A DNA stretch of 64,000 nucleotides, taken from NCBI GenBank assembly GCA_018303855.1, contig JAGVXI010000012.1, positions 2,403 to 66,402 of the forward strand. The letters run 5' to 3'. Source of the stretch: Candidatus Pacearchaeota archaeon (GTDB lineage Archaea; Nanobdellota; Nanobdellia; Pacearchaeales; GW2011-AR1). The position numbers were made by a program, and so were the translations under genes. This document shows positions 1,031-64,000 of the stretch, piece after piece. Every line of letters starts with the position of its first letter. Positions within the stretch are counted from its first letter, which is position 1. The notes below the pieces were generated by a model. It saw nothing but the letters and a program-made list of their open reading frames with translations, searched no databases and had not been told where the DNA came from.

Positions 1031-1453
1031 TTAAGTTCTAACTAGTGGAATATTCTCCTGCTACTTTATCATCGAACATAAGTTCTCATAACGATCCCAT
1101 ATCCCCTGATATGGAACCGGTTTTTGTTTTTTAGTGACGTTTTCTCGTCGCCTCAACAGTGTTTTACACTTTAAGGGACAAAAATCTTTTTAGATTTTTG
1201 GATTTCAAATTGAACACAGCTGCAGGAAAAAAATCCGCAGGTGGTTTTTAATTTGAATATGATTTGTAATTTTTAGTTTTATCTGCTAATTTGTTTGGTT
1301 GTTGGACTTAATAATTTTCTAACCTTAACTATTAACTCATTCTTTGTTTATTTAATATTAACCTTTTAAATTTAATCATCTTATCTTTAATTTATTTAAT
1401 ACTGGCTTCTTAAATCTTATCATCTAAGCAATATCCATTTTTCTTAGAAAAAT

Positions 1454-1523
1454 GGACCTGCCGTGAATTGAACACGGGTCTCCTCGGTGCAAGCGAGGTA
1501 TTCTACCGTTAGACTACAGGCCC
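1454..1523 (-). tRNA. tRNA-Ala (anticodon TGC) in the 16S-23S spacer
   Basis: RC reads gggcctgtagtctaacggtagaatacctcgcTTGCAccgaggagacccgtgttcaattcacggcaggtcca: 7-bp acceptor stem with G3:U70 Ala identity pair, D-loop, anticodon loop cTTGCAc, T-arm gttcaattc; CCA not encoded. Spacer tRNA-Ala is typical of archaeal rRNA operons. Confidence 0.85.
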
Positions 1524-1887
1524 TTGTAATTATTTCGGCCTGTGAGTTTTTAATGTTTTCTATTTTGAAGGCTTTTATAGTAAAATTCTTGCTCCATTGC
1601 ACTTACTTTGTCTGAATTAACTATACCGCTAACGATAGGAGGTGCAATAAGCACAAAATATGCTGCAATTTCTAAATATTTATTCAATTCAATTTCTGAT
1701 GCCAACACGATTCCTTTTATAAAACCTACGCCAAATAAAATTGATGCAAGTGTTTTTGCCATTTTTATTATCCTTTATAATGTAAATTCACGCATGTTAA
1801 TATTTTCATCTTAAACAAAAGATGATGGTATGTAGAGCAATTAAATAATTATTTGTCTCTTTATTCTAGTTATCCAATTTAAAATTT

Positions 1888-3290
1888 AGGAGGTGATCCA
1901 TCTGCAGGTTCCCCTACAGATACCTTGTGACGACTTAACCTACCTTGTCATGCTAAAATTCTCCTTCGAAAAGTTTCATTATAACAGTGTGTGCAAGAGA
2001 CAGGGACAGATTCACCGTTCGCTGCTAACGAACGATTACTACGGATTCCAGCGTCATGAGGCTGGGTTGCAAACCTCAATCTGAACTGAGATGGATTTTA
2101 GGGGATTAGCTTCTCTTTTCAGAGTTGCATCCAATTGTATCCACCATTGACGCGCGCGTGTCGCCCAGGGGATTCAGGCTGTACTCACCTAACGTAGCCC
2201 GCACTTTCATCCATGTTACCATGGCAATCTGCATATTGTACACGTAGTAAATATGCACGCGGGTCTTGCCTGTTACCTGATTTAACAGGTCACCTCACGG
2301 CACAGGCTGACGTTGGCCATGCAACTCCTCTCAGCGTGTCAGGTAAGCCCTTCAGACTGACCTTCATTCTGCTGTCGCTCCTGGTGAGGTTCACGGTGTC
2401 GAATCTAATTGAACCGCACGCGTCACCCGTTGTAGTGTCTCCCCGCCAATTCCTTTAAGTTTCGGCCTTGCGGCTATACTTCCCAGGTAGCACACTTTTC
2501 GCCTTCGCTACAGCACCGAAGCCTCTCGAGGAGGTCCCGATGTTTAGTGTGCAGTGTTTACTGCTAGGACTACATGGGTATCTAATCCATTTTGCGCCCC
2601 TAGCCTTCATCCCTTACTGTCAGAACTGTACTCGTAGGATGCCTTCGCTGTTGTGAGTCCAACCAAGATCAACACATTTTACCGCTACTTTGATTGTACT
2701 TCCTACGTCTTCCAATCTCTAGCTTAGCAGTACTTCTTGCACGCCTTATACTTGAGATATAAGATTTCACAAGAAACTTATTAAGCAAGCTACGGATGTT
2801 TTAGACCCAATAATGATGGCTGCGACTTGGACCGCTAGTATTACCGCGGCGGCTGGCACTAGTCTTACCCAGTCCTTATTCGCCAAACTTTTTAGATTTA
2901 GCAAAAGCGTCTCATTGAGACGCACTTTGGTTCGCTCTGTCACGCTTTCGCGCATTGCAGAAAATACCTAACTGCTGCACCCCGTAGGGCTGGGAGTAGT
3001 GTCTCAGACTCCCTCTCAGGGCCTCTCCGCTAAGAGCCCTTACTGATCATCGGCTTGGTGGGCCTAATCAGCCGCAGTCCCATCCTATGGCACGAATTTG
3101 AAAGACAAATCTTTCCAGGGTATGTCTTCTATCAGGTATTAGCCTCAGTTTCCCGAGGGTATCCCTGACCTTAGGGTAGGTTAACTACGTGTTACTGAGC
3201 AGTTCGCTTTGCTCTTATTTCTAAAAACAAAAACTTGCATGTCTAAATGCAAACCAAAGAGCCGCAGCCGCCAGCAGGATCAACTGGATT
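1888..3290 (-). rRNA. rrs: 16S (SSU) rRNA, ~1.4 kb
   Basis: Plus strand shows RC of the SSU 3' end (aggaggtgatcc...ccttgtgacgactt), the 515 region (gtattaccgcggcggctggcac = RC of GTGCCAGCCGCCGCGGTAATAC, archaeal form), the 907-926 region (ccgccaattcctttaagtttc) and the 5' end (cagcaggatcaactgga). Divergent in places; see findings. Confidence 0.9.
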
Positions 3291-3619
3291 TGAAACAACT
3301 TCACAGATTTAATTAAATTAGCATTTAAAATAATCTCAATTGCGCATTTGTTATATAAGATAAACAAATACTTCACACATTCTCCTACTATTGACTGATT
3401 GGCCTAAAATAAATTTATCGACGATAAATTTGAGAATTACAACTAAATGACTGCTTCTACATACCTCATACCTTAATGCAAACAGCGTTAATATTATAAC
3501 CACTGTGTTTATACACGCACAATATTAAGGCAATCATCTTAGTTACGATTTAAGATGATTATAGGTATTTATAAAGGTTTCGCTGATTTTTTATATCTTT
3601 TTAGCGTCGAGAATTATTT

Positions 3620-3859: not shown

Positions 3860-4552
3860 TTATTGGACATGCTTTTCAATATCAATATCTTCTCCAGACT
3901 TTTTATTTAATCTTTCCTCAGCTACTTTAACTATAATATCTGCAACTTTGCTTGGGTGTATGCCTTCAAAGTTTGACATTCTTGTAGCTGTCATTCCAGG
4001 ATTTATAGAATATAATTTTATGTTTGTATCTTCATATTCTTTTGCTAAACCTTTAGTAAATCCTCTTACGCCAAATTTGCTTGCAGCATAAGGAGCCATT
4101 TCAGGCCATTTAATTCTTTTTCCAGCCATACTTGCAATATTTATTACTATACCCAAATTTTGTCCTTGCATATAGGGAAGCACAGTTTTTGTTATATTCA
4201 TCAAACCAATCAAATTAACTTCTATCTGATTTCTTATTTCTTTATTGTTTTGTTCTATAAATCTTTTTTCTATATAAATTCCTGAATTGTTTACAAGAAT
4301 ATGAATCGCTCCGAACTTCTCTATTACTTCTTCAACGCATTTTTTTATAGAGCTTTCATTTGTTACATCAAGTTGAATTAATATGCAATCACTATACTTT
4401 TTGCATTCTTTTAATGTTTCTTGCCCTTGTTTTTTACTTTTATTATATGTAACAATTACTTTAGCTTTTTGTTTTGCAAGAGCAATTGCAGTCGCTTTCC
4501 CAATTCCCTCACTGCTTCCTGTAACTAAAATAACTTTGTCTTTTAAATACAT
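3860..4552 (-). CDS. short-chain dehydrogenase/reductase (SDR) family oxidoreductase
   Basis: N-terminal TGSSEGIGKA Rossmann motif, NNSG, catalytic YAASK (YxxxK). Confidence 0.85.
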   Translation of the reverse strand: MYLKDKVILVTGSSEGIGKATAIALAKQKAKVIVTYNKSKKQGQETLKECKKYSDCILIQLDVTNESSIKKCVEEVIEKFGAIHILVNNSGIYIEKRFIEQNNKEIRNQIEVNLIGLMNITKTVLPYMQGQNLGIVINIASMAGKRIKWPEMAPYAASKFGVRGFTKGLAKEYEDTNIKLYSINPGMTATRMSNFEGIHPSKVADIIVKVAEERLNKKSGEDIDIEKHVQ

Positions 4553-12742: not shown

Positions 12743-13180
12743 CTAACATTTCACAACCATTTTTGCATTAAGAATACAGTCATTAATTTTTAAAATAGCT
12801 TCTTTAAACTCCCAGTTCTCAGCAGATGTAGTGCTAAAAAAATAAGTTTTTTTGCTGTTTGGTTTAAGGATAACGCAGTTTCCGCAATTATCAGAGCAAA
12901 ACCACTCTTCTCCCCCAATTATAAATTCAATATCTTCAAAATAATAGTTGTCAAGACTTCTTCCCAGTGTAACTTCAAACTCTTCTGTTTCCAAATTGTA
13001 ACACGCATATTCTATTTTTATTGGTGTGTTTATCTGTATATCCAAGCAATCAAATTTTGGAGCTAAAGCTGGCTCATTTATTATACTGTTAACCACCACC
13101 CAAACCAAAGAGATTGCAACTAAACTGATTAATATTGTAATCACTGTTGCAATGACTTCTGAAATTCCTTTCTTGTTCAT
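12743..13180 (-). CDS. archaeal pilin-like protein (class III signal peptide)
   Basis: MNKKG|ISEVIATVITILISLVAISLVWVV resembles the archaeal type IV pilin N-terminal domain (prepilin peptidase site after KKG). Start taken at the second Met to avoid overlap with the upstream gene. Confidence 0.5.
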   Translation of the reverse strand: MNKKGISEVIATVITILISLVAISLVWVVVNSIINEPALAPKFDCLDIQINTPIKIEYACYNLETEEFEVTLGRSLDNYYFEDIEFIIGGEEWFCSDNCGNCVILKPNSKKTYFFSTTSAENWEFKEAILKINDCILNAKMVVKC

Positions 13181-52069: not shown

Positions 52070-52663
52070 TTAACTGACTACATTAATATTGATTTTAATT
52101 GGAGTATCAGCAGGGGCTGATGGTTCTACACCATTATTTTCTAATTTTACTTTGTAGGGAATAGGAGCTTTTGTTATTGTTTTTGCTTCTACTTCTGAAT
52201 TGTCATACTGCAGGTTATATTTGTTTGTATAATCAAGAGTTAAGGTTACATCATAAACTTTGCTTCCTTTTTTTTCTGTAAGAATGTTAATATTCCCATC
52301 CTTAATTGTTCTTCCTGGCTCACTATACATGCTCTTACTTTCACTTAATGTAAAAATTATTGAATCAGAATTACTGTCAAATTTCAAATTTCCTTTTTTT
52401 ATTCCTATCTCAACTATCCTTGTATTTCCTTCTCCCCCTCTGGTAATCTCTGATACAACTGAATCAATATACCTCATAATCTCTATTGTTTGTTCAATTA
52501 CTGCCTGGTCCTGTACTTCTTGTATCTTTGGTTTAACAAATGCCAACGTTGTTCCGATTATAACCAGTCCAATTAGGGTGTAGATAACAGTTTCAACCCA
52601 AATCTGTGCAAGCTTATTCATAGCTTTAAAACCTCTTTTATATTTAATGCAAGAAGAACTCAT
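52070..52663 (-). CDS. pilin-like membrane-anchored protein
   Basis: KRGFKAMNKLAQIWVETVIYTLIGLVIIG N-terminal helix then beta-rich domain. Confidence 0.45.
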   Translation of the reverse strand: MSSSCIKYKRGFKAMNKLAQIWVETVIYTLIGLVIIGTTLAFVKPKIQEVQDQAVIEQTIEIMRYIDSVVSEITRGGEGNTRIVEIGIKKGNLKFDSNSDSIIFTLSESKSMYSEPGRTIKDGNINILTEKKGSKVYDVTLTLDYTNKYNLQYDNSEVEAKTITKAPIPYKVKLENNGVEPSAPADTPIKININVVS

Positions 52664-52696
52664 TTAAATAATTAATTGTTTAGGTTAAATCAAGGC

Positions 52697-53341
52697 TTAA
52701 GAAACAATTATTCCTGCAGCGCATTTTCCTATCTCAGAAGCTATGTCAACAACCCCGCAGTCTTGTCCATCTATGAACGCAGAAAGTTTTACTGATTCTG
52801 GCACATCAGTGAAGCTGAAAAATGGCAGGCTAGTGTCGACAATATATGTTTTTCCAGCATTTTTTCCAGGAAGTTCAAGAGGATTCCCAAAGTTAGTTCC
52901 TGCCCCTGAATTTTTAATAAAAATGGCAGATTGTCCATCAATTAATTCAAATCCTTTTGAATTTCCTTTTGACATAATAGAAACTCCAAATTTCTCAACT
53001 TCTATATTTTCAACATTTATTGAAACCTGAGTCATATCATTATATGTTCCATCACTCTGGTTCTGCCAGCAGGTATAAACTTTGTTTAACTTTATTTTAT
53101 CAAAAATATCTGAACAAGTTCCTGCCTGTTCTAAATTTCCTTTAATCATCTGGTTTATTACTGTCCAAATTATCCCTATTGCTACAACAACCAAAGTGAT
53201 TAGAATTAAAACGCTAATAACTCCTGATAAACCTTTTTTATCACAAAGTCCTTGTGTGTTTTTGTTTGGACTTTGTGGGACAGAAAACAAAAGACAATTG
53301 CTATGCAATTTGTTTTCTGTATAAACTGTTTTTTTGCCCAT
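52697..53341 (-). CDS. archaeal type IV pilin (class III signal, long leader)
   Basis: ...DKKG|LSGVISVLILITLVVVAIGIIW; start taken at Met15 (track ORF extends to 53383 and overlaps the upstream pilin gene). Confidence 0.55.
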   Translation of the reverse strand: MGKKTVYTENKLHSNCLLFSVPQSPNKNTQGLCDKKGLSGVISVLILITLVVVAIGIIWTVINQMIKGNLEQAGTCSDIFDKIKLNKVYTCWQNQSDGTYNDMTQVSINVENIEVEKFGVSIMSKGNSKGFELIDGQSAIFIKNSGAGTNFGNPLELPGKNAGKTYIVDTSLPFFSFTDVPESVKLSAFIDGQDCGVVDIASEIGKCAAGIIVS

Positions 53342-53342
53342 T

Positions 53343-53819
53343 TTACAACTCTTTTTCAACACCTGTTCGAGCATCGCAAACATAAGCAGTTTTTCCGTCT
53401 TCAGAACTTCCTAATAAAACAGGAATTATTAAAATCCTGTTAGCGTCTGTAAGTACCAGAGATATATCATCAGATGTCCAGCTTCCGCCTTGCCTTAATC
53501 CTCCTGCAGGCCAACTACTATCCAAATCTCTTATATCCTGCTCAGAATAATCCCCTCCCTCGTAAATTCTTATTTTTAATCCATAAAGAGGGGTATTTCC
53601 GTTAACTATACTCAACTTTCCGTTTGTATAAGTTACAGTAAAGCTTATGTCATCTTCGCAAACAAGTGCTATATTCTTTTCAAATTTTGTAACTGGTGTT
53701 TTAATTGTCATTCTAAACCATAAGAAAATGATCAATGCAATTGCCACAACTATTGCAATCAACAAAACAGTTGCAATAACAGGCGAAAGTCCCCTTTTCT
53801 TATTTATTCTTTTAAGCAT
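53343..53819 (-). CDS. archaeal type IV pilin (class III signal peptide)
   Basis: MLKRINKKRG|LSPVIATVLLIAIVVAIALIIF, the archaeal pilin N-terminal consensus (G-LSPVIATVLLIAI). Confidence 0.7.
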   Translation of the reverse strand: MLKRINKKRGLSPVIATVLLIAIVVAIALIIFLWFRMTIKTPVTKFEKNIALVCEDDISFTVTYTNGKLSIVNGNTPLYGLKIRIYEGGDYSEQDIRDLDSSWPAGGLRQGGSWTSDDISLVLTDANRILIIPVLLGSSEDGKTAYVCDARTGVEKEL

Positions 53820-53966
53820 TTTTATCTTTTTGTTAATATTTAAATCTGATTTATATTTATTAATCTTAATCTGTTTATGATGGTTAATCTGGTATTAGGC
53901 TTTTTACAATTAAAACTTTTTTGATTTTATTCTATTATATCAAGTTTACTTAGTTTTAAAATCTTT

Positions 53967-54503
53967 TTATATTGTAGCGCAGGTTATTTCTTCTTTTATT
54001 TTTCCTTCATCACAAGAAACAATCCTCTCAACTCTTTTTTCATCTATCTGGACTTTTGCTGGAATAATCTCAATTGAATGGATTGTTTGTGGGGCACCAG
54101 TTTCATCTACAACAAGAGCCATATTTATCTCTTTTTCTGCAGATTCTCTACCTGGTTTTAACAAACCTCCTCCAAATGAAACATATCCTGGATTTTGAGG
54201 TTGTACTATATTAACTAAATCAAAAGTTGCTGTTTCTTGATTAGGCTCAATTGTTGCTCTAATAAAATAACCATCAATATCGAATCTCCCGTTATTTTTT
54301 AGTTTGAAGATTAATTGATTCCCACTGCATTCAATCTGCGTCAGCATTAAAGAAGTTCCTTCAGGGCATTTTTGCATTCCTTCTCGTGGAATATTGACTT
54401 TTAAAAATTGATAGACTATTAAACTCATAACAACAGCAATGCTGATTAGTAGTATATAACTAATCATAATGCTTATCCCTTTTTTATTTTTCCTATTTAT
54501 CAT
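53967..54503 (-). CDS. archaeal type IV pilin-like protein
   Basis: MINRKNKKG|ISIMISYILLISIAVVMSLIVY. Confidence 0.6.
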   Translation of the reverse strand: MINRKNKKGISIMISYILLISIAVVMSLIVYQFLKVNIPREGMQKCPEGTSLMLTQIECSGNQLIFKLKNNGRFDIDGYFIRATIEPNQETATFDLVNIVQPQNPGYVSFGGGLLKPGRESAEKEINMALVVDETGAPQTIHSIEIIPAKVQIDEKRVERIVSCDEGKIKEEITCATI

Positions 54504-54652
54504 TGTTGATTTTTTGTTAGCTTTTATAAGGTATTTTTTATTTTCAAACCTTTAACTATAATTAATTTAATTTATATTACCAGCACCTGCTTTAATTGTT
54601 AACACTTGCTGGCTATTTAATCTTTCTTGATTTGGTTATGTTTTTTAATTTC

Positions 54653-55183
54653 TTAGCTTTTAGCAATGTATGTTTCTTCTCCAATATTCTGCAATATTAC
54701 AAAATAAAAGTTTTCACCAGGTTTTAAATTGAATTGATAGTCCACTTCTTTACCAGTCTGTTCATTTTCTATTTTTATAATAATATCAGTTTCTCCCCCA
54801 ACAGAAATTGTCTTTTTTTTATATGCATCTCCTTCTATTTTGATTTTTGGACTTCCTTCTCCAAGTGTTATGCTTATGCCCCCTAAAATAATTTCTTCAA
54901 ATGTTGCAATAGTTATTGTATCGGTATTTCCATAAGCAAAATACAAGTTTCTCCCCTCTTCTTTAGAATATTTATGGTAAAGCGTCGTGAAGTCTTCAAT
55001 TTTATTGTCATCACTGAATGTTCCATATTCCAAAACTTTTCCGCCTTCAAAACCCAACTCATCTTTCAAATTATAAATTTTAACATCAGATTTTCTTACA
55101 TAATTTTGCACAATAGCAAACCCAAGAATAATCGCAATAATCACAATTGCTGCTATAAGGTAAAACTGCCCCTTTTTTTGCAT
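54653..55183 (-). CDS. archaeal type IV pilin-like protein
   Basis: MQKKG|QFYLIAAIVIIAIILGFAIV. Confidence 0.6.
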   Translation of the reverse strand: MQKKGQFYLIAAIVIIAIILGFAIVQNYVRKSDVKIYNLKDELGFEGGKVLEYGTFSDDNKIEDFTTLYHKYSKEEGRNLYFAYGNTDTITIATFEEIILGGISITLGEGSPKIKIEGDAYKKKTISVGGETDIIIKIENEQTGKEVDYQFNLKPGENFYFVILQNIGEETYIAKS

Positions 55184-55279: not shown

Positions 55280-55560
55280 AAACTTCGGGACTTTTACTTG
55301 AAAAGTAGACCCGAAGGCTAGCCTCAAGATTATTAAAAAGCTTCCCTCATTCTTTCTCAGCTCTGCGACCCACCAAGCATCTTGACAAATGTTTAGGGCT
55401 GCTCCGATCAAAGTCTGACCCGTTTCGCATCTGCAAGATCGAAGTGGACAGAACCTCAACGTCCGAACAAGGACTTTTTAATCCACTTGTCACATACCTT
55501 CTTGCAGTCTGCCGTAAAGCCCGTTTGCAAACAGCGGAGGGCTAACCCGCTAACCTGGTC
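55280..55560 (-). ncRNA. candidate structured ncRNA, unidentified (SRP RNA and IS-associated RNA are untested possibilities)
   Basis: ~280-nt island at ~50% GC in ~30% GC DNA with no credible ORF; long-range complementarity on the minus strand (CUGCAAGA/UCUUGCAG, AAGUGGA/UCCACUU, GUCC/GGAC hairpin); 3' end is a GC stem-loop (55283-55316) followed by a U-tract. Confidence 0.4.
55283..55316 (-). terminator. intrinsic terminator-like hairpin plus U-tract at the candidate ncRNA 3' end
   Basis: cttcggg-acttttacttgaaaagtag-acccgaag stem-loop followed on the minus strand by UUUUGAGAUUUUUU. Confidence 0.3.
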
Positions 55561-55620
55561 TACATATTTCATAGAGGAAAATAGGTTTTTAAGATTATTG
55601 TTTTGGGGGAGTGTTAGGAA

Positions 55621-56850
55621 TTAGGGAGTTATCGTCATTTTCTCCTCTCCTGTTAAGTCACGGGAGTTTTGATGTTTAATTGATTGTAAAAGCATAGTTT
55701 CCCAAGCATTCCCGTTTATTCCAACTCCAACCTTATCCGCAGGAGTTAAGCCCTGTCTTGCGTTCTTTCTTACGAAGTTATGGAATACCTTAAAGCCATC
55801 TTGATATTCTTGAACGTTTGTTATTCCACGCCTTACTTTCTGAAACTCTTTTTGGTGTGAGTGATGGCTTTCTATCGCATTATTGTTTATTTCTTTCCTA
55901 TGCCCTTTAATTGATGTAAATTTAACCTTTCTTTCATTACCCCAATTTCTAAATGTCTTTCTAACTCCGTCTTGATAACCAGCATAACCATCAACTATAA
56001 TCTGAAATGGGATTTTTCCGTTTTGCTTATATGCTTCTTCCATAACTTTCTGTGCGTCTTTAGAACTTCTTGAACGCCCTGAACATTCAGACGCTAAAAG
56101 GAATTTACTTTTATTATCCATAACATTCCAAACATAATCAAAGTTTGTGTTCTGTTTATTTTTTCCACGCTTTGTTAAAACCAAAGTTTCGTCAGCGTTC
56201 CAAACTCCTTTTATTTGGGGTTGGATTGTCTTGCTGTATTTTTCCATAACTCTTGAAAATCTTAAAACCCATTCCCTTATTGTAACGTGGGAAATCTTTA
56301 GTCCATAGAACTGATTAAACTGATGGCTTATATCTCTATAAGACAAGCCCCTGTAATAACAATCCATAGCAAGACAAACGAGTTTAGTGTTTCCTTTGAT
56401 GTTCTTTATCGGGCTTAATACAAATCTCTTATGACAATTTCTACATTCATATCTTTGCTTTGTGCCTATCTTTGTTTTTCTTATTCCTGATTTCATTAGG
56501 TTTTCAGAGTTACATTCAGGGCATAAATCCTTTTGTGGTGTGTCTATGATTAACTCTATTTCTTGTTCTAATTCTGGTTTGACTTCATACTTCTGCTTTA
56601 TTCTTTGGAATAAAATTATTGCCTTTATGTGCTTACAATAAAGGTTTTTACCCTGACATCTTCTCTTAAAGTCCTCACATTCACAGGAATAAGCGTCTAT
56701 GTGGGTTACTCTATATTTCCTGTCTGAACTTTGAGAGGGAACTAAATAAGTAAATTCGTCAAGAGTTTCAGGGTTGCCTATCTCTAATATGGCTCTTGCC
56801 CTTTCTTCTCTTGTGTTTGAGAACTGCTTAATGTCTTGTGTGTTTTCCAT
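55621..56850 (-). CDS. IS6-family-like DDE transposase with N-terminal SWIM-type zinc-finger extension
   Basis: C-terminal ~230 aa parallel IS26/IS6 Tnp (SYRDIS...HVTIREWV..., WNADETLV, IIVDGYAGY, NNNAIESHHSHQK); N-terminal CECEDFKRRCQGKNLYCKHIKAI (CxC...CxH, SWIM) and CPEC...CRNCH. Confidence 0.8.
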   Translation of the reverse strand: MENTQDIKQFSNTREERARAILEIGNPETLDEFTYLVPSQSSDRKYRVTHIDAYSCECEDFKRRCQGKNLYCKHIKAIILFQRIKQKYEVKPELEQEIELIIDTPQKDLCPECNSENLMKSGIRKTKIGTKQRYECRNCHKRFVLSPIKNIKGNTKLVCLAMDCYYRGLSYRDISHQFNQFYGLKISHVTIREWVLRFSRVMEKYSKTIQPQIKGVWNADETLVLTKRGKNKQNTNFDYVWNVMDNKSKFLLASECSGRSRSSKDAQKVMEEAYKQNGKIPFQIIVDGYAGYQDGVRKTFRNWGNERKVKFTSIKGHRKEINNNAIESHHSHQKEFQKVRRGITNVQEYQDGFKVFHNFVRKNARQGLTPADKVGVGINGNAWETMLLQSIKHQNSRDLTGEEKMTITP

Positions 56851-56889
56851 ATAATACTATAATACTGATAGTATTTAAACACTATGGTA

Positions 56890-56913
56890 GTTCAGTATTA
56901 TATAATACAGAAC
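56890..56913. promoter_or_regulatory. 24-bp near-perfect palindrome upstream of the RHH gene (putative operator)
   Basis: gttcagtattatATaatacagaac, one mismatch, 37 nt upstream of ATG at 56950; further palindrome aatactgatagtatt at ~56858. Confidence 0.35.
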
Positions 56914-56949
56914 GTAAATGTTTATAAAGCGATAATACCATAATACTCT

Positions 56950-57087
56950 ATGGAAAGGAAGACAACAAGCATTAAGGTTAGTCCGCAGTTGTGGGAAGAT
57001 GTTAAGATATTCTGCATAAGGCAGAAGATAGATATTTCTGATTGGTTGGAGAAAATCATCAGGGAAAATTTGAAGAAATCTAAATAA
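56950..57087 (+). CDS. ribbon-helix-helix (CopG/Arc-like) small DNA-binding protein, 45 aa
   Basis: MERKTTSIKVSPQLWEDVKIFCIRQKIDISDWLEKIIRENL: beta strand then two helices, RHH pattern; below the ORF-track size cutoff. Confidence 0.5.
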   Translation: MERKTTSIKVSPQLWEDVKIFCIRQKIDISDWLEKIIRENLKKSK

Positions 57088-57178
57088 TTCTAAATTTTTA
57101 CCGAAAGTATTATAAGTATTACTTATATTATTAGTATTATTAATCATATTGATGTGATTAATATGTAAAGGTATAAAA

Positions 57179-59458
57179 ATGAAAAAGTCATATTCTAATT
57201 ATGAAAAGAGGGGCGGAAAAAAAAGGCAGATTAAGTGCAACAATAAACCCTCAAACCCTCAAAAAATTCAACGAATACTGCGACAAAAATTCCATAAACA
57301 AATCTCAATTATTAGAGAAGCAAATAATAAAAATTCTGAAAGAGGTGGGACTATGGCAAGAAAAATAAAAACCACTGAAGTTCTTTCATATAGGTTTATT
57401 CTCAATGAATTAGAAGCATTAGGTTGGAATATTAGCAATCCACTTTCCAATCCAGAGGGGCAAGTTTATACTCAAAGACAATGTTTAGACGATAAAAGAA
57501 TTCAAGAACAATTAAAAGGAATTCACCCTGAAAATGTTGTTAAACTTACTGAAAAAGAAGTTTATGTTATTGAAGCAAAAAAAGATAGGGAAATGGTTGA
57601 TAAAGCCATAGGGGAAGCAGAAAAAGATTACTCTGATAAAATAAATAAAAGTAGCAAAATAAAGGCAGTTATATGTTCAGGGGTGGGTGGAAATGAAATT
57701 GATGGGTATTTGGTTAAAAGTCAATTTTTAGAAAATGGGAAATGGAAAACTATTACAATAAATAAAAAAGAATTAACAGGGCTTGTTTCCCCCGAAATTG
57801 CTAAACTTCTTCTTGAACAGAAAAAGGCAGATATTGATGAAATACCTATTGATGAAAAATTATTTATGGAAACTGCCCAAAGAATAAATGCAATACTTCA
57901 TACTGGCGGAATAATAAGAGATTATAGGGCAAGAGTTATGGCTTGTTTATTATTGGCTTTATCAGAAGACGCAAAATTAAATCTAAATGAAAGCCCAGCA
58001 ATTTTAATAAATTCAATAAATGCAAGAGTTAATGCTGTTTTACAAAGAGAGGGGAAACCAAATTTTTACCAATATTTAGATATTGCATTGCCATCATCAA
58101 CAGAAAATCACGTTAAGTTTAAACAAGCATTGGTTTTAACAATTCAAGAATTACTTAACCTAAACATCCGTTCTGCTATGAACTCTGGAACAGATGTTCT
58201 TGGAAAGTTCTATGAGGCATTTTTAAAATATGGAAATGGGGCAAAAGAAATCGGGGTTGTTTTAACGCCAAGACATATAACCAAATTTTCAGCGGAAACT
58301 CTTGACATAAAAAAGAATGATTTAGTTTTAGATGTGGCTTGTGGAACGGGTGGTTTTCTTGTTTCCGCTTTTGATTATGTAAAAAAGAATTCAACCGAAG
58401 AAGAATTAAACATATTTAAGAAAAATAATATATTCGGAACAGAATTACTTGATGGTGTTGTTGCATTAGCTATTGTCAATATGATTTTTAGAGGAGATGG
58501 CAAAAACAATATTATGGGTGGAGATTGTTTCAAGTATTGGTATCACTTAATAAGAAAAAGAGATGGAACAAATACAGCCGATTTTATAGAAAATACAGAA
58601 AAGTATTATTATCCAGATAAAAAGAATAAAGATAAGAAAGAAGAAAGAATAAATCCAATAAGTAAAGTTTTAATGAACCCACCTTTTGCTTTAAAGACAA
58701 GTCAAGAAAAAGAGTATAAGTTTATTGAACACGCATTAAAGCAAATGAGAAAAGATGGTTTATTGTTTTCTGTTTTGCCAACGTCAAATATGGTTAAGGC
58801 AGGTGGTTATCTTAAATGGCGTAGAGATAGTTTGTTGAGGGAAAATACTCTTTTGGCAGTTATAACTTTCCCAAATGATTTGTTTTATCCGATTGGGGTT
58901 GAGAGTTGTGGGGTTTTTATTAAGAAAGGAAATCCACACCCAAAAGGACAAAAAGTTTTATGGGTTAAAATAAGAAATGATGGGTTTTTGAAAAGCAAAG
59001 GAAAGAGATTACCAAGCAATAAAATTAAAGATGAACTTGCAGAAGTAAAAGATTTAGTTAAAGATTTCCTAAAAAATCCAGAAACAAAGGTGGAAAATAA
59101 AAAAGAATTCCAAAAGGCGTGTGCGATAGATTTTGAGGATAAGAATTTGGAATTATTGCCAGAGGTTTATCTTGATGAGAAAAAACCAACAGATATAGAA
59201 TTAAAAAAGAGAATTGACAAAACAATAAGGGACGCAATTTCCTTAATGGTTAAGTTTGATACTTTCAAAGATTTCAAAATTAATGTGGATATATCGCAAG
59301 TTTTATCAAAACCAAAAAAAGTAAATAATACTAATTTTGTTGAAATCCCAATTACTGATTTATTTAAAACTCCTATTAAAACAGGACATTATCATAAAAG
59401 TAGTGCAACAGATGATGGACAAATTCCCCTTGTTTCTTGTGTTAGTGATAATGGGTGA
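57179..59458 (+). CDS. MmeI-like fused restriction-modification enzyme (N-terminal PD-ExK-like nuclease + gamma-class N6-adenine MTase), truncated by in-frame TGA
   Basis: MTase motif I LDVACGTGGFLVSAF, motif IV LMNPPFA; N-terminal EVYVIEAKKD (ExK). Likely real start at ATG 57353 (MARKIKT..., preceded by agaggtggg). Frame stays open for 131 codons past the TGA at 59456. Confidence 0.75.
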   Translation: MKKSYSNYEKRGGKKRQIKCNNKPSNPQKIQRILRQKFHKQISIIREANNKNSERGGTMARKIKTTEVLSYRFILNELEALGWNISNPLSNPEGQVYTQRQCLDDKRIQEQLKGIHPENVVKLTEKEVYVIEAKKDREMVDKAIGEAEKDYSDKINKSSKIKAVICSGVGGNEIDGYLVKSQFLENGKWKTITINKKELTGLVSPEIAKLLLEQKKADIDEIPIDEKLFMETAQRINAILHTGGIIRDYRARVMACLLLALSEDAKLNLNESPAILINSINARVNAVLQREGKPNFYQYLDIALPSSTENHVKFKQALVLTIQELLNLNIRSAMNSGTDVLGKFYEAFLKYGNGAKEIGVVLTPRHITKFSAETLDIKKNDLVLDVACGTGGFLVSAFDYVKKNSTEEELNIFKKNNIFGTELLDGVVALAIVNMIFRGDGKNNIMGGDCFKYWYHLIRKRDGTNTADFIENTEKYYYPDKKNKDKKEERINPISKVLMNPPFALKTSQEKEYKFIEHALKQMRKDGLLFSVLPTSNMVKAGGYLKWRRDSLLRENTLLAVITFPNDLFYPIGVESCGVFIKKGNPHPKGQKVLWVKIRNDGFLKSKGKRLPSNKIKDELAEVKDLVKDFLKNPETKVENKKEFQKACAIDFEDKNLELLPEVYLDEKKPTDIELKKRIDKTIRDAISLMVKFDTFKDFKINVDISQVLSKPKKVNNTNFVEIPITDLFKTPIKTGHYHKSSATDDGQIPLVSCVSDNG

Positions 59459-59854
59459 TTTGAAGCATTTATTGAAAGCCCAAATAAAATTAAGGTAAAA
59501 GACAAAAAGGGCAAGGAAAAAACAATAGAGATTAATCATAAAAATAATATAACAATCGCTTCTGATGGAACGCCTTTAACTTCCTTTTATCATTATTATG
59601 ATTTTACTGCAAAAGACAATGTGCTTATAGGTAAGCCAAAAGAAGATTATAGATTTACAACCTTACTTTTTATAACAACACAACTTAATGCTTTAAGGTG
59701 GCGTTTTTCTTATGGAAGAAAATGCTATGAAAATAAAGCCCACAAAGTAAAGATTTTCTTGCCAATGAAAGATAATAAGATAGATGAAGATTACATTGAA
59801 AATTTATTTAAGAATATAGAAAGTTGGGGAATTTTGGAGAAAATAATTGTTTAA
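59459..59854 (+). other. in-frame continuation (131 codons) of the RM gene after the TGA stop; probable detached C-terminal target-recognition segment
   Basis: Codons 59459-59851 are open in the same frame as 57179-59458; the track reports only the internal-Met ORF 59621-59854. Confidence 0.45.
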
Positions 59855-60048
59855 CTCCCGCCCCTTAACACCTTATTCATCTCCCGAAGACTTAACACTC
59901 CTTTGTTTTGGGTTTGGGGGTATAAGTTTGCGGGTTGATTAAATATATTATGGTAAGATGATTTACTGGCTTAAAATAAACGGTTATAACTTTTGAGTAT
60001 AGCGTAATATAGGCTAGATTATCTCAAGATTATTTTGTTTGTTTCACT

Positions 60049-60693
60049 TTACTTTTTTGTTAATGCAAAACCAAAAAGTATTATCACAAGCAACACACTC
60101 ATTGAAGCAAGCATCCACAATAAATAATCTTGTTTTTTTGCACTTTGTTTACCAGTTAAACCCTGTCCTGCTAAGCTCTCTGTTTCAGTATATTCACATC
60201 CAGAAGTTTCTATTGGCTTATTATACTCAACACTGCACATATTTTTATCATGGCACTGGCGCGTTCTTCCACCTTCACTACACTCGCTCCAATCAGAACA
60301 CTGCCAGTCAGCATAGCAAAACTCTGAACGGGAAAAAGCTATTGAAATACCAGAACCTATTGCCCGCAATATATTTTGGGTTTGATTCTGTTGAGTTTGG
60401 TTTTGTATTATTATAGAAGGGGTTGAATCACATGCATTACCAATGCCATCTAAATCAGCATCTTCTTGCCCAGGATTATAAGCTATTGGGCAATTGTCAA
60501 CATCGCTTCCAATTCCATCACCATCAGCATCATGAATAACCTGAGCATTAATTAGTGTTAAAAATAATAAAAAATAAAAAATTGAGGTGAAAATTAATAT
60601 TAATACTGGGGAGATAGCCAATTTAAAATTTAGGCTCTTAGTTAAAATTTTGATGCTTAAAGCATTAATTAATTTATTAAGTAAATCAATCAT
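60049..60693 (-). CDS. surface protein with thrombospondin type-3-like Ca-binding repeats and Cys-rich W-C domain, C-terminal TM
   Basis: DADGDGIGSDVDNCPIAYNPGQEDADLDGIGNACD (TSP3-like DxDxDG...DNC..NP.Q.D); CYADWQCSDWSECSEGGRTRQCHDKNMC; C-terminal anchor. Confidence 0.6.
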   Translation of the reverse strand: MIDLLNKLINALSIKILTKSLNFKLAISPVLILIFTSIFYFLLFLTLINAQVIHDADGDGIGSDVDNCPIAYNPGQEDADLDGIGNACDSTPSIIIQNQTQQNQTQNILRAIGSGISIAFSRSEFCYADWQCSDWSECSEGGRTRQCHDKNMCSVEYNKPIETSGCEYTETESLAGQGLTGKQSAKKQDYLLWMLASMSVLLVIILFGFALTKK

Positions 60694-60743
60694 TTTCTTG
60701 ACTAAACTTGAAATTATTTAAAGATTATTATGCTGAGAAATAT

Positions 60744-61517
60744 CTATTGCTTTTTCTTATTGTCTACTAGCTTCTTTTTGTTCATAATTACCATTGCAGC
60801 TGCAACAACTACTGCTATAAATATTAATCCTGCACCTGCTTTTGATTTGGCAAAATTTGCAACACCTCCAATAATATTCCCTGTAATTCCAGCCCACCCT
60901 TGATTAGGGCATTGTTTTATTGTTAACGGTTTTAATTCTTCTGTTCCGCAGTTGTTTGTGTCTCTGCACTCTCTTGAACCGCACTCATTATCTTCATTGC
61001 TCCATGCATCACACTGCCATCTTTCAATGCATGTTTCTTGTAGTAGACTTAAAGGAGTTACTCCTGGACTGTTTGAACTTGAACTACCTCCGCCTCCGCC
61101 GCCTCCGCCTCCACCATTGTTGCTTTCAGTTGCACAAGTTGATGAACATCCGTCACCATTTGTAGTATTTCCATCATCACAGCTCTCTCCTGCTTCAACA
61201 ATACTATTGCCGCAAACAGAAGAAGCATTGCATGCCTGGGTATTTCCACACTGCACAGGTTTTAGATTTACTGTTCCACACTGGTTTTTATCAATGCAAA
61301 TAAATGTCTGTTGATTATTATTGCAAGAACTCCATGTTGAACTGCTCCAGTCTTCTTCACAGCCCCCAGAACCAATAACTATTCTCCCCCCACCAACATC
61401 AACTCCAAAACTGCCATGATAAGTAGCAGCACTTGCAACACTTGCCGCTACTAACAAAACTGCCAAACTTACTAAGAATATTTTTGTATTCATCTTTTGT
61501 TTTTGTGATTGTATCAA
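60744..61517 (-). CDS. Cys-rich surface protein (two W-C domains + CGN...DGC repeat, poly-Gly linker, C-terminal TM)
   Basis: Signal peptide; CEEDWSSSTWSSC...QCGTVNLKPVQC and CIERWQCDAWSNEDNECGSRECRDTNNCG (same domain as the previous gene); CGNSIVEAGESCDDGNTTNGDGCSSTC; GGGGGGGGGG; TM. Confidence 0.6.
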   Translation of the reverse strand: MIQSQKQKMNTKIFLVSLAVLLVAASVASAATYHGSFGVDVGGGRIVIGSGGCEEDWSSSTWSSCNNNQQTFICIDKNQCGTVNLKPVQCGNTQACNASSVCGNSIVEAGESCDDGNTTNGDGCSSTCATESNNGGGGGGGGGGSSSSNSPGVTPLSLLQETCIERWQCDAWSNEDNECGSRECRDTNNCGTEELKPLTIKQCPNQGWAGITGNIIGGVANFAKSKAGAGLIFIAVVVAAAMVIMNKKKLVDNKKKQ

Positions 61518-61587
61518 TTTTTATTTAATAAAGATATCTGTAACTTATTTTATATTTTAAACCTTGTATATTTGAGTACTATCTAGC

Positions 61588-64000
61588 TTAATCTTCGCAG
61601 TTTACAGTGTCAATCCAGTATTCTAAGTCATGCACACCAGGGCCAATTTGCTGTACAACTTCGCTATTAAGTGTTAAGCTCAAACCAAATTCTGTCTGCT
61701 CGTTTATCTCTTCGCATGCCTCGCCAAGTTGTAGTATTCCTGCATCACTTTCAAATCCTTCATGCTGCAATCCTACAAATGTGCTATCGTTGTTATTTGA
61801 TATTTCTGCATTCATCATTGCAGGGGTTATAATTTCTCCAAGCTTGTTCATTCTGAATTGTATGTTACTATCCCCTCTTATGCATGTGTGGAATGTGAAA
61901 TCACACTCTCCTCCTAAAATTGGGTCTATGTTGCAGAATGCCGGAGAAATATACTCAACAAAAACAGTTTCAGATAGATATTCGCTTATTGAACTTGTTC
62001 CTTGATTCCCTAGGTTATCAGAAGTATAAACAACTAATTCATATTCGCCAGTTGGAAGAGATTTATCCATTAATGCCTCATACACATTTCCTTGCTCTCC
62101 GCTGTAAACAGATTTTCTTAGTGAGATGTTTCTAACAACTTCTTGTTGTGAATTTATTAGCTCAGCTCTGACACTCTCATTATTTATACCTGCTCCGTTA
62201 TCAAATACCTCAACAACAATTGCCTGCGAGCATCTTTGTATGTTTCCAGCTTCATTTTGAGTGGGGTTGTGTATAATTATTGTTGGGAGAGTATTGTCAA
62301 GCCAGTCTTCTTCTGTATTTTGTTCCTCTTCATTTCCAAGCAAATCAATTGAATCATAATACAAAGTGTAAAGCCCATCTTCTTCTTCTATGTTAAACTG
62401 CTCAGAATATATCTGTGGTTCATTCTCGTTAATTTGGTAAGAAGTGTAATCACATCCAACTTCTGAATCTGAGCATGTTAAATTAAACAAAGTTTCTGAA
62501 GTGATAAACAATGCACTTCCATTGTTATATTGCGGAGTTCCAATTGTTTTTGTTGTTGTTGGAGCTTGTGTATCTACCTTGTCTGTTTCATTTTTAATTT
62601 CTTCTGTGTTTTCTAATTCATCTGTGGAATAATATTCAATTTCATATACTCCATCTCCTTGTTCAAATGCGAAAGACTCTTCATAAACAAGCCATTCAGA
62701 CCAGTTTCCCTCAGCATATTTTATTCTATAATATGTTGCATCACACCCTACTACCACATCTTCATCACCATCGCTACATTCCAACACTATCTCTGTTTCA
62801 TCTGTAATAAACCAATCAATAACCCACTGAAGCCATTCAAAACCCTCAACTTTTGGCTCACCAACTGTCTTTGTTGTTTCAGGAGGGGTTCTGTCAATAT
62901 TAACGCTTACCCCATTTTCTCCAATATTACATGCTTTGTCTTTTGCTCTTTTTGTTATTGCACAATTTCCATCATCAGAACAATAAGTATCTAGTATTAC
63001 ATTAAAATTATTGTTGCAAATATCAGAACTCCATTCAGAAATATAAGGAGTATTCTGATTATTTTGTATTTCAATTTGACATTCTAATAAACTATTCTCT
63101 GCGTCAGCATCATTTTCACTTACATCAAAATTAGTATTGAACCAATCATCCTCTTGAGGTGCAGTTATTTCAACTGTTGGGTTTCCATTATCATAATAAA
63201 CATCTTCACTCCAAGAACTCCAATCTCCTGTGTTGCCAGCCATATCTACAGCCCTAACTCTTATTGAATATGTGTGCTCATTTGTTCCTGCAAGATTTAA
63301 ACTTAATAATTCTGGTTCTATTATTGGATTTATCTGTCCTGTATCATTTATCTCAACTTCATAATAATCAACAGGAGCACATCCATTGCTTGTTGCTTCT
63401 GTCCATGAGAATGAAATCTCCTCATTTGTATAGTCTTGTTCACAATTAAATGTGTTATCAACACTTACTTCAGGAGTTTCTGGTTCTTGGGTATCAACGC
63501 AAAATTCGCATGATGCAGTTTCTCCTTCATTATTAAATTCATCAATAGCATAAGCAGTTATTGTATGGTTTCCTTCTAAAAATGTTTCTTCAAATGGCTT
63601 TGTTTGCCAATCTTCTTCAACTTCATTGAAACTTCCATCGCTTGGATCAGAATTTGTATAATCATGGTTTGCATTATTACTATTGTCCTCGCTTTCTCTG
63701 CTATACTGAACATTATCTATTTCACTCCCTCCTGTTTCAGCATCACTTGCACTGCCACTTATATAAAGCTCTTGTTGATTTACATAAGGATTTTCAGTGC
63801 ATGACCATGTTTCATCTTCGTTGTTTTGATTTATTATTGTTAAAACATTAATTATTGGAGTTAACTCTAAAACATCTTCATTGTTTATCTCTACATTCCA
63901 GATATGGCTCTCAGATTCATAAATCCAGCCATCAACTTCAATTTCAATTTTAGTAATTTCTTCCTCACCATCACTTGCTTTCCATTCAGCTAAAGAATTG
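61588..64000 (-). CDS. large acidic (D/E/N-rich) secreted surface protein, 3' part; gene runs off the window end
   Basis: Minus-strand frame is open from 64000 down to the stop at 61588 (hand-translated 63244-64000: ...NSLAEWKASDGEE...LNLAGTNEHTYSIRVRAVDM-AGNTG...); the track ORF 61588-63243 starts at an internal Met. Confidence 0.6.
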   Translation of the reverse strand, partial: NSLAEWKASDGEEEITKIEIEVDGWIYESESHIWNVEINNEDVLELTPIINVLTIINQNNEDETWSCTENPYVNQQELYISGSASDAETGGSEIDNVQYSRESEDNSNNANHDYTNSDPSDGSFNEVEEDWQTKPFEETFLEGNHTITAYAIDEFNNEGETASCEFCVDTQEPETPEVSVDNTFNCEQDYTNEEISFSWTEATSNGCAPVDYYEVEINDTGQINPIIEPELLSLNLAGTNEHTYSIRVRAVDMAGNTGDWSSWSEDVYYDNGNPTVEITAPQEDDWFNTNFDVSENDADAENSLLECQIEIQNNQNTPYISEWSSDICNNNFNVILDTYCSDDGNCAITKRAKDKACNIGENGVSVNIDRTPPETTKTVGEPKVEGFEWLQWVIDWFITDETEIVLECSDGDEDVVVGCDATYYRIKYAEGNWSEWLVYEESFAFEQGDGVYEIEYYSTDELENTEEIKNETDKVDTQAPTTTKTIGTPQYNNGSALFITSETLFNLTCSDSEVGCDYTSYQINENEPQIYSEQFNIEEEDGLYTLYYDSIDLLGNEEEQNTEEDWLDNTLPTIIIHNPTQNEAGNIQRCSQAIVVEVFDNGAGINNESVRAELINSQQEVVRNISLRKSVYSGEQGNVYEALMDKSLPTGEYELVVYTSDNLGNQGTSSISEYLSETVFVEYISPAFCNIDPILGGECDFTFHTCIRGDSNIQFRMNKLGEIITPAMMNAEISNNNDSTFVGLQHEGFESDAGILQLGEACEEINEQTEFGLSLTLNSEVVQQIGPGVHDLEYWIDTVNCED

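Follow-up and report, generated by a model that had tools for sequence, protein, structure and literature searches.

The window analysed here, 64,000 nucleotides (nt) of contig JAGVXI010000012.1 from a Candidatus Pacearchaeota archaeon, carries at positions 55607–59902 a mobile element with intact ends, inserted beside the signal recognition particle (SRP) RNA gene of its host. The host is a DPANN-type archaeon with an archaeal 16S/tRNA-Ala/23S operon at window positions 1–3290, and the contigs that match the window come from Rifle groundwater metagenomes. The element encodes a transposase, two ribbon-helix-helix (RHH) proteins and a restriction-modification (RM) enzyme, all lying between terminal inverted repeats (TIRs), and it abuts a host promoter with a TATA-like box and a B recognition element (BRE). 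The features at the locus, from left to right, are:

55303–55565, minus strand: host SRP (7S) RNA gene (full-length match to Rfam Archaea_SRP, E 1e-16)
55586–55597, minus strand: host promoter, comprising the TATA-like octamer CTTAAAAA (55586–55593) and a 4-nt spacer on the BRE side (55594–55597)
55598–55606: left copy of the target-site duplication, 9 bp, TTGTTTTGG
55607–59902: whole transposon, 4,296 bp
55607–55630, plus strand: near (transposase-side) TIR, GGGAGTGTTAGGAATTAGGGAGTT
55621–56850, minus strand: transposase, 409 aa (Pfam, NCBIfam, conserved residues, ISCpe7 alignment and AlphaFold model)
55646–55668, plus strand: near-end subterminal site, TGTTAAGTCACGGGAG, inside the 3' end of the transposase open reading frame (ORF) and at a fixed position (+43) in all family members
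56851–56949: divergent promoter/operator region, 99 bp, with two TATA boxes (TTTATAAA and TTTAAATA) and six GTATTA/TAATAC repeats
56950–57087, plus strand: RHH1, a 45-aa backbone RHH regulator, divergent from the transposase
57098–57145, plus strand: putative cargo promoter region, with a BRE/TATA-like sequence ACCGAAAGTATTATAA and three more GTATTA repeats
57201–57368, plus strand: RHH2, a 55-aa RHH gene overlapping the start of the RM gene (Pfam RHH_3, E 0.004)
57353–59854, plus strand: single-chain RM gene of Type IIG architecture, interrupted by a TGA codon (Pfam and PDB searches, hhalign and homolog alignment)
59853–59875, minus strand: far (cargo-side) subterminal site, TGTTAAGGGGCGGGAG
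59879–59902, minus strand: far-end TIR, AGGAGTGTTAAGTCTTCGGGAGAT
59903–59911: right copy of the target-site duplication, 9 bp, TTGTTTTGG

The limits of the element rest on the TIRs and the duplication rule found throughout its family, and on two assemblies of the same population, L010 and L011, in which one flank differs. These are identical across the whole element and split exactly after ...TAACACTCCC, which places the element tip at 55607 and its end at 59902 and makes the duplication the 9-mer TTGTTTTGG. An earlier note on this DNA had described a 10-bp duplication, TTGTTTTGGG. This 10-mer is indeed confined in the window to the two ends, at 55598–55607 and 59903–59912 (0.27 occurrences expected), but a 10-bp model leaves an orphan T at 59902 unexplained, and the duplication is 9 bp, as at all 42 related sites described below. 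The 21-bp inverted repeat that the note had given for the ends (55608–55628 and 59881–59901) is present, with 17 of 21 positions identical, and a search for further copies with a degenerate pattern matched only these two places in the window, where none would be expected by chance. The real termini, however, are 24 bp long (18/24 identical), and a second, subterminal copy follows at each end, giving two copies of a ~22-bp site per end. The core of this site, TGTTA-N{6,7}-GGGAG, has four copies in the 64 kb, all at the element ends, against 0.2 expected. In four further assemblies of the same population the transposon is 100% identical.

The earlier note had also called the element composite, that is, a compound transposon in which two insertion sequence (IS) copies mobilise the DNA between them. 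Such a structure is not far-fetched for a transposase of this kind, since elements of the IS6 family, its distant relatives, typically form compound or pseudo-compound transposons (PMC7986276). The window nevertheless has one transposase gene, no flanking IS copies and no second TIR pair, its four sites lie only at the outer ends, and all 42 related elements have the same single-transposase layout, so that a composite origin has next to nothing to recommend it. One transposase and its passengers within a single TIR pair, a target duplication and occurrence at more than one site make this a unit transposon, or tIS in ISfinder terms.

The transposase has 391 close homologs, mostly in metagenome-assembled genomes of Nanoarchaeota, Pacearchaeota and Woesearchaeota (70–95% identity among the best 120 listed), and more distant relatives form 142 cluster representatives at E ≤ 1e-30, many of them full length. 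Close relatives are absent from the plasmid and phage collections searched, and in IMG/VR a relative lies on only 2 of 2.9 million contigs; the idea that the element came from a phage or a plasmid was discarded. Loci were fetched from GTDB representative genomes (27), from JGI metagenomes (80) and, in several cases, by exact-protein look-up, and the elements were delineated with a script that allowed duplications of 7–11 bp and tip offsets of 0–4 and could detect elements down to 150 bp; gene calls in this survey came from a simple ORF script. Delineation succeeded at 23 of the 24 loci having at least 8 kb of upstream sequence. The script returned a 9-bp duplication for all 41 related loci delineated, its sole other output being a 7-mer nested in the same duplication, and a perfect 9-bp duplication with the same tip position is found at 42/42 distinct insertion sites in genomes of Nanoarchaeota, Pacearchaeota and Woesearchaeota. 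The same tip rule and a 9-bp duplication hold for four members of greater divergence, whose TIRs (GGGAGTGTCGCAGATT, for example) are closer still to IS6 inverted repeats.

Mobility is demonstrated by identical elements that sit at different sites with different duplications. For example, the element encoding transposase P0008 occurs, identical, at two sites (L003 and L004) with different 9-bp duplications, as does a 4,117-bp element (L071 and L072). Element lengths range from 2,348 to 6,822 bp, with a median of 4.1 kb, and no bare IS was found. These data also bear on the idea that the window simply holds an ordinary transposase-only IS which landed by chance beside an unrelated chromosomal RM gene, with the outer and direct repeats being coincidental. 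Homologs of the RM protein at 73–77% identity do occur without this transposase, as such a coincidence would have it. Against this, the transposase and the RM gene have no TIR between them, the far end has both site copies in the correct inverted orientation, and the 9-bp duplication brackets the full 4.3 kb. The same arrangement recurs with unrelated cargo at 42 sites, none of them cargo-free, and the smallest element, at 2,348 bp, is well above the detection limit of the script; we give the coincidence almost no credence. Two different members also occur ~70 kb apart on a single 293-kb contig, CAWJRC010000004.1, one (L013) with small unknown ORFs and the other (L017) with a GmrSD-HNH nuclease, an EcoRI-type methylase and a RelA/SpoT-like gene.

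The insertion site is the second feature shared by the family. In the window, the 5' end of the SRP RNA lies 20–21 nt downstream of the octamer CTTAAAAA, and the left copy of the duplication begins 4 bp beyond that octamer. The SRP RNA gene scores 73.5 bits, below the Rfam gathering score of 96.5, and Rfam at default settings would overlook it; an ortholog with the same synteny in a related genome (L125) reaches 76.7 bits. We aligned the 42 reconstructed target sites and scored as TATA-like any octamer with at least 7/8 matches to TTTWWAWA, taking the same host DNA under the same scoring as background. At 40 of the 42 sites, one flank has a TATA-like octamer at a distance of exactly 4 bp from the duplication, compared with 3.3% in the background (binomial p 4e-57), and a perfect octamer is found at this offset at 25 sites, compared with 0.28% (binomial p 3e-53). 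The offset profile has a sharp peak at 4, with 0–3 sites at each offset from 7 to 15. The oriented consensus, ..aaA / aAan / TTTATAAA / cc, reads as a purine-rich BRE followed by a TATA box, and the accepted octamers are varied, including TTTATAAA, TTTAAATA, TTTTTAAA, CTTATAAA, TTAATAAA and CTTAAAAA. This placement, shared family-wide, had escaped the earlier note, as had the double sites at each end and the in-frame TGA of the RM gene.

On the TATA side, 25 of the 42 sites have an outward ATG-initiated ORF whose start is no more than 120 nt away, the modal distance being 21 nt (seven sites, and one site each at 22 and 23 nt); on the opposite flank such an ORF is found at 11/42 sites, with no mode. 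A spacing of 21 nt is the geometry of leaderless archaeal messenger RNAs, judged from predicted transcript starts. The octamer of L090 is followed, at 23 nt, by the start of a tRNA-Met gene. The boxes would thus lie 20–25 nt before the transcript start with a purine-rich BRE just upstream, as expected of archaeal promoters, and the duplication falls at roughly −43 to −35 relative to the inferred start, leaving BRE and TATA intact. The element can take either orientation, the TATA box being by the far end at 20 sites and by the near end at 15, with seven ambiguous.

Could this placement be a by-product of a preference for AT-rich DNA combined with purifying selection that leaves only intergenic insertions? 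The host genomes are gene-dense, with ~68% A+T, a preference for AT-rich or bent DNA is shared by many IS families, and selection surely removes insertions within genes and between the TATA box and the start site. However, the spacing is fixed to one base, as the offset profile attests, and only one side of the duplication has the motif, which is not expected of a symmetric transpososome that reads its own cut sites alone. Single-base spacing is beyond the reach of selection or AT preference, and therefore indicates mechanistic targeting; we consider the by-product explanation improbable and are firmly convinced that the family integrates at the upstream edge of host promoters, with base precision, 4 bp from the TATA box. 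Two short sequences near the insertion were also recorded. GGCTAG..CTCAAGATTATT is found both at 55316–55338, within the 3' portion of the SRP RNA gene, and at 60011–60033, ~110 bp beyond the far end, and AAGATTATT is also present at the SRP promoter (55591–55599).

Taken as a whole, the locus is very probably explained by a unit transposon of an uncatalogued family that is distantly related to IS6, common in DPANN archaea, and inserts at promoter edges. Several observations weigh against this explanation. The earlier note had suggested looking for an allele without the insertion, which we reconstruct as ...GATTA-TTGTTTTGG-GTTTGGGGG... (in longer form, ...TTTTTAAGATTATTGTTTTGGGTTTGGGGGTATAAG...), and the search came up empty: all 46 contigs with the flanking genes either carry the element or break inside it, and beyond these the flanking pilin-like protein has homologs of no more than 51% identity, which offer no nucleotide-level empty site. 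In the related genome L125 the upstream gene directly adjoins the SRP RNA promoter and no element lies between them, but the divergence of this genome is too great for it to serve as an empty site. A mis-assembly could account for the hybrid junction in L011, described below. The transposase scores 90.6 bits with the best NCBIfam model, below the NCBI cutoff of 125 for IS6, which makes the IS6 relationship remote. At two of the 42 sites (L106 and L017) there is no TATA octamer at offset 4, and the upstream-only polarity may be due in part to selection, which would remove insertions that fall between a TATA box and its transcription start. Our full-text searches of the literature, incomplete in coverage, returned no description of this transposon family or of TATA-adjacent IS targeting in archaea, which is absence of evidence only.

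Three loci have unusual surroundings. In L011 (JGI 3300002105 contig, positions 13077–13100), the same element as in the window has the window's own flank at its far end, while its near end is joined to an ArgRS/adenylate kinase flank, with no matching duplication; a second copy, an inter-copy rearrangement or a mis-assembly are all possible. In L005, the 19-nt flanks (1–19 and 3909–3927) are exact reverse complements of each other, whereas the same element in L004 has a normal direct 9-bp duplication, and the mirrored flanks are either an assembly artefact or an inversion-type product. These two cases are the sole hints of cointegrate transposition, and both may be artefacts of assembly rather than traces of replicative transposition. 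In L006, a serine recombinase (Resolvase) gene at 2627–3430 lies directly outside the near end of a related element. IS6-type cointegrates need resolution.

The transposase is a SWIM-containing, IS6-like DDE enzyme, as the earlier note had proposed, and the Pfam matches, the NCBIfam IS6 model and the alignment with ISCpe7 all bear this out. It has an N-terminal helical part with a SWIM finger (C56, C58, C72, H74), a zinc ribbon (C110, C113, C136, C139), a helix-turn-helix (HTH) domain (residues ~155–206) and a DDE core (D220, D287, E327, K334). Pfam matches are to DDE_Tnp_IS240, DDE_Tnp_IS66 and rve, with SWIM matched weakly. The best NCBIfam model is that of IS6 (NF033587), which is covered in full (6–202/202) at E 1e-25, and an IS1/IS1595-type zinc ribbon is also matched. 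Among plasmid records, the best-ranked annotated relatives are IS6 family transposases at 22–27% identity. Pairwise alignment with the IS6 transposase of ISCpe7 gives 26% identity (E 5e-20), with the zinc ribbon, the HTH and the WxADET / D / NNxIE-x6-K motifs in register. Among 60 homologs at 25–90% identity, C56, C58, C72, H74, C113, C136, C139, D220 and E327 are invariant, and C110 and D287 nearly so. The AlphaFold (AF2) model, with a predicted local distance difference test (pLDDT) score of 83.6, has a DDE transposase/integrase fold, with the ISCth4 transposase of the IS256 family as its top match and TnsB and retroviral integrases next. The IS1, IS66, IS256, ISH6 and Mutator families were considered as its family and rejected, as they gave weaker matches than IS6.

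Members of the IS6 family produce 8-bp repeats and have single inverted repeats of 14–20 bp with the consensus 'GG...cTGTt', and their lengths are 0.7–0.9 kb, reaching 1.76 kb in clades h and i (PMC7986276). ISfinder holds one IS6 member with a passenger gene, and the IS6 review makes no mention of target specificity (PMC7986276). Of the known elements, those of IS6 come closest to the new family, above all clade h (ISCpe7-type, with a zinc finger) and clade i (with a zinc finger and an extra N-terminal domain). Shared with IS6 are the HTH and a DDE core with the DET / D / NNxIE-x6-K motifs, the zinc ribbon ahead of the HTH, and ends with a G-rich tip and TGTT at positions 6–9. The new family differs in its duplication, for which no 8-bp solution was found in the window or at any of the 42 related sites; in its 24-bp ends, which match the IS6 tip and TGTT motif yet are accompanied by a second subterminal copy, giving two sites per end instead of a single 14–20 bp repeat; and in its size (2.3–6.8 kb), with additional ORFs in every element in place of a simple IS. 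It differs further in its SWIM-containing N-terminal domain, its divergent RHH regulator and its strict choice of promoter edges. Because the 8-bp duplication and the simple-IS organization are absent and the score is under the curated hidden Markov model cutoff, we file the family, on its sequence features, as a new IS6-related group and not as a member of IS6. It would extend the IS6 superfamily to a clade with features absent from the 2021 IS6 review: a duplication of 9 bp, a pair of sites at each end, cargo as an obligatory part and a putative repressor of its own.

The element ends suggest how the transposase may tell its sites apart. Across the family, the subterminal copies lie at fixed positions, +31/32 and +43, and the TIR tip is G(A/G)G, or GG in divergent members, with TGTT at positions 6–9. 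The site sequences are of two classes, ...GGGAG(T/A)T and ...GTGGCTT, and no element mixes them among its four sites, while transposases of opposite classes can be up to 90% identical. When 16 class-A elements are compared with 18 class-B elements, positions 121, 133 and 135 are the sole transposase residues that separate them, C-terminal codons overlapping the site aside. All three lie in the zinc ribbon, and for this reason we infer that the zinc ribbon probably reads the variable half of each site. The co-variation of these residues with the GGGAG and GTGGC classes represents a directly testable protein-DNA recognition code.

The cargo of the window copy consists of RHH2 and the RM gene. 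The nuclease part of the RM protein (~57392–57757) is PD-(D/E)XK-like, with E60 and E74-A-K76 invariant; the methylase part (58190–59125) is an HsdM-type N6-adenine methylase with an NPPF motif (N6_Mtase, E 1.5e-34); and the C-terminal target recognition domain (TRD, ~59330–59851) is of the HsdS type (Methylase_S). Sequence and profile searches of PDB with the RM protein matched only HsdM, the type I M subunit, and the PDB sequence searches did not identify the nuclease domain. The N-terminus does align with that of a paralogous transposon-borne enzyme in L003 (hhalign probability 99.6), which in turn matches HSDR_N. A nuclease, an HsdM-type methylase and an HsdS-type TRD in one protein amount to a Type IIG architecture. 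AloI/CjeI-type enzymes have the order nuclease-methylase-TRD. The earlier note was right to see a fused single-chain RM enzyme as cargo, but the label 'MmeI-like' does not hold, for only the overall order of modules resembles MmeI: none of the MmeI-family domains (MmeI_N, MmeI_hel, MmeI_Mtase, MmeI_TRD, MmeI_C) was found in the protein, which matches only N6_Mtase and Methylase_S at E ≤ 0.01. With Type IIG/IIC single-chain enzymes it shares the N-terminal PD-(D/E)XK nuclease, a gamma-class N6-adenine methylase (NPPF) and a Methylase_S TRD; it departs from them in having a single, half-size TRD, a truncating stop codon, and an RHH controller rather than the usual HTH C-protein.

The RM frame is broken by an in-frame TGA at 59456–59458. 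At this position seven of seven aligned homologs (60–79% identity) have Gly (SDNG-G-FEGF), from which the change can be read as GGA to TGA, and every assembly of the population has the same nonsense mutation. Recoding of TGA as Gly (code 25) was considered and rejected: TGA ends 6 of 42 long ORFs, and read-through barely lengthens ORFs. With TGA an ordinary stop in this genome and the mutation present in all assemblies, the RM copy in the window is, on its coding sequence, almost certainly dead. An N-terminal extension of the RM protein, offered by a long ORF from 57179, was likewise discarded, its upstream part being the RHH2 gene in another frame. The RM homologs nearest in sequence, at 77% and 73% identity, are found outside such transposons, beside tyrosine-recombinase genes, and keep an overlapping RHH2 ORF in the alternative frame, which argues that RHH2 and the RM gene were captured as a module and that RHH1 belongs to the backbone; the earlier note, which listed a single RHH regulator, had recognised one of the two and missed the other. 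The 5' part of the RHH2 ORF contains a run of nine A residues (57216–57224), of the same length in all assemblies examined, that may be prone to slippage.

Across the family, cargo is present in all delineated elements, and at least 25 of the 36 distinct elements carry DNA methyltransferase or RM genes. The types of cargo are:

11 of 36 elements: HsdM-type RM fusions or M+S pairs, the window copy included
8 of 36 elements: a GmrSD_N-HNH nuclease with an EcoRI-type methylase, often together with a RelA/SpoT-like, Fic or ATPase gene
5 of 36 elements: N6_N4 methylases, one of them in a complete Type III Res/Mod
1 of 36 elements: a C5 methylase
Remainder of the 36 elements: small unknown ORFs

One ApaLI-type endonuclease was also found. 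Between the window and L003, the RM proteins are only ~25–30% identical, whereas the transposases are 84% identical, which indicates that cargo is exchanged on a conserved backbone. In four elements (L017, L094, L018 and L064), the GmrSD_N-HNH and EcoRI-type methylase pair is accompanied by a RelA/SpoT-like gene (possibly a toxSAS) or a Fic gene, and this suggests three-gene defence/toxin modules, perhaps undescribed. Two delineated elements contain tRNA genes that appear to be cargo: a tRNA-Gly (CCC) of 90 nt at L022:8978–9067 and a tRNA-Asp (GTC) at L127:638–710. Target-specific transposons that carry defence genes are already known, namely the Tn7-like elements (PMC8649781). The new family shares with such tIS or unit transposons a single transposition module, a variable cargo slot dominated by RM and defence genes, and targeted 'safe' sites. 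Unlike the Tn7-like elements, it has one small transposase in place of TnsABC(D/E), is much smaller, resides in archaeal (DPANN) hosts, and has as its target a general feature of promoters rather than a single conserved gene or a guide RNA.

RHH1 lies beside the transposase in about half of the elements. Its matches are weak but consistent, with RHH_4 in 8 of 10 members, and with Omega_Repress, 56B_RHH and PDB 2kel. Across the RHH1-bearing elements the 99-bp divergent region is conserved, with a tandem GTATTA repeat after each TATA box and a central inverted pair. The window has 47 copies of GTATTA/TAATAC, of which six fall in a 95-bp stretch of the divergent region and three more lie upstream of RHH2. 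Elements with another type of small regulator (AbrB-like or CopG-like) have a different repeated motif, as would be expected if the regulator binds the repeats. The six GTATTA repeats around the two TATA boxes are most likely binding sites of RHH1, which, once it has accumulated and the element is established, would probably repress both the transposase and the cargo operon. A scan of the archaeal window for bacterial sigma-70 promoters was uninformative. Further out, small proteins bearing archaeal class-III (pilin-like) signal peptides are clustered on one side of the insertion (52070–55183, minus strand), and on the other side lie large secreted or adhesin-like proteins (60049–63243, minus strand), one with a poly-Gly/Ser run (60744–61517).

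A possible course of transposition can be drawn from these features. The 409-aa transposase would bind the four ~22-bp sites, one terminal and one subterminal per end, and the ends would be joined to a target cut with a 9-bp stagger, by replicative or cut-and-paste chemistry. The transpososome would place the duplication 4 bp upstream of the TATA box, on the BRE side and in either orientation, so that the host gene would keep an intact BRE/TATA and the compact genome would be undamaged. The candidate for the targeting module is the N-terminal SWIM domain, which is specific to the family. Between RHH1 and the far end lies a cargo slot that appears exchangeable, and the window copy would have taken up RHH2 and the Type IIG module, with later inactivation.

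As to how the promoter is recognised, the transposase could read naked BRE/TATA DNA directly, with no host factor. Most of the information in the consensus falls on the octamer and the BRE-like A residues, the model is the simpler one, and the protein offers three potential DNA-binding modules (SWIM, zinc ribbon and HTH); direct read-out is accordingly a serious contender, though we rate its chances at somewhat under even. It sits less easily with accepted octamers that are as degenerate as TBP sites, and with a near-palindromic octamer that nevertheless has the insertion on its BRE side wherever orientation can be judged, which a TFB/TBP complex would explain. These two points, and a SWIM domain that canonical IS6 enzymes lack, incline us slightly towards a promoter recognised as a bent complex with TBP and TFB, a suggestion with close to an even chance of being correct. 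Archaeal TBP and TFB are homologs of the TFIIIB components TBP and Brf1. Integration targeted by a promoter complex is known for Ty3 and for the Dictyostelium element TRE5-A, which use RNA polymerase III (Pol III) promoters via TFIIIB (PMC8632968, PMC6101501). The new family shares with them a spacing that is constant to the base at the edge of a TBP/TFIIB-type complex, insertion in either orientation upstream of tRNA or small-RNA genes, and avoidance of coding sequence in compact genomes. It differs in being a DNA transposon with an IS6-like DDE enzyme that also uses the promoters of protein genes, the role of TBP/TFB being hypothetical here.

If true, archaeal DNA transposons would have in this family a counterpart of Ty3/TFIIIB targeting. 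The fixed-distance landing at TATA boxes suggests a 'safe-haven' strategy convergent with that of the eukaryotic Pol III-targeted retrotransposons, and a small single-protein system with a predictable point of insertion beside promoters could serve as an archaeal genetic tool. For the hosts, the family shows RM movement in DPANN archaea, which depend on hosts, whose genomes are tiny and gene-dense and whose mobile elements are almost undescribed; it would be the main vehicle that shuttles RM and other defence or toxin genes among these reduced genomes.

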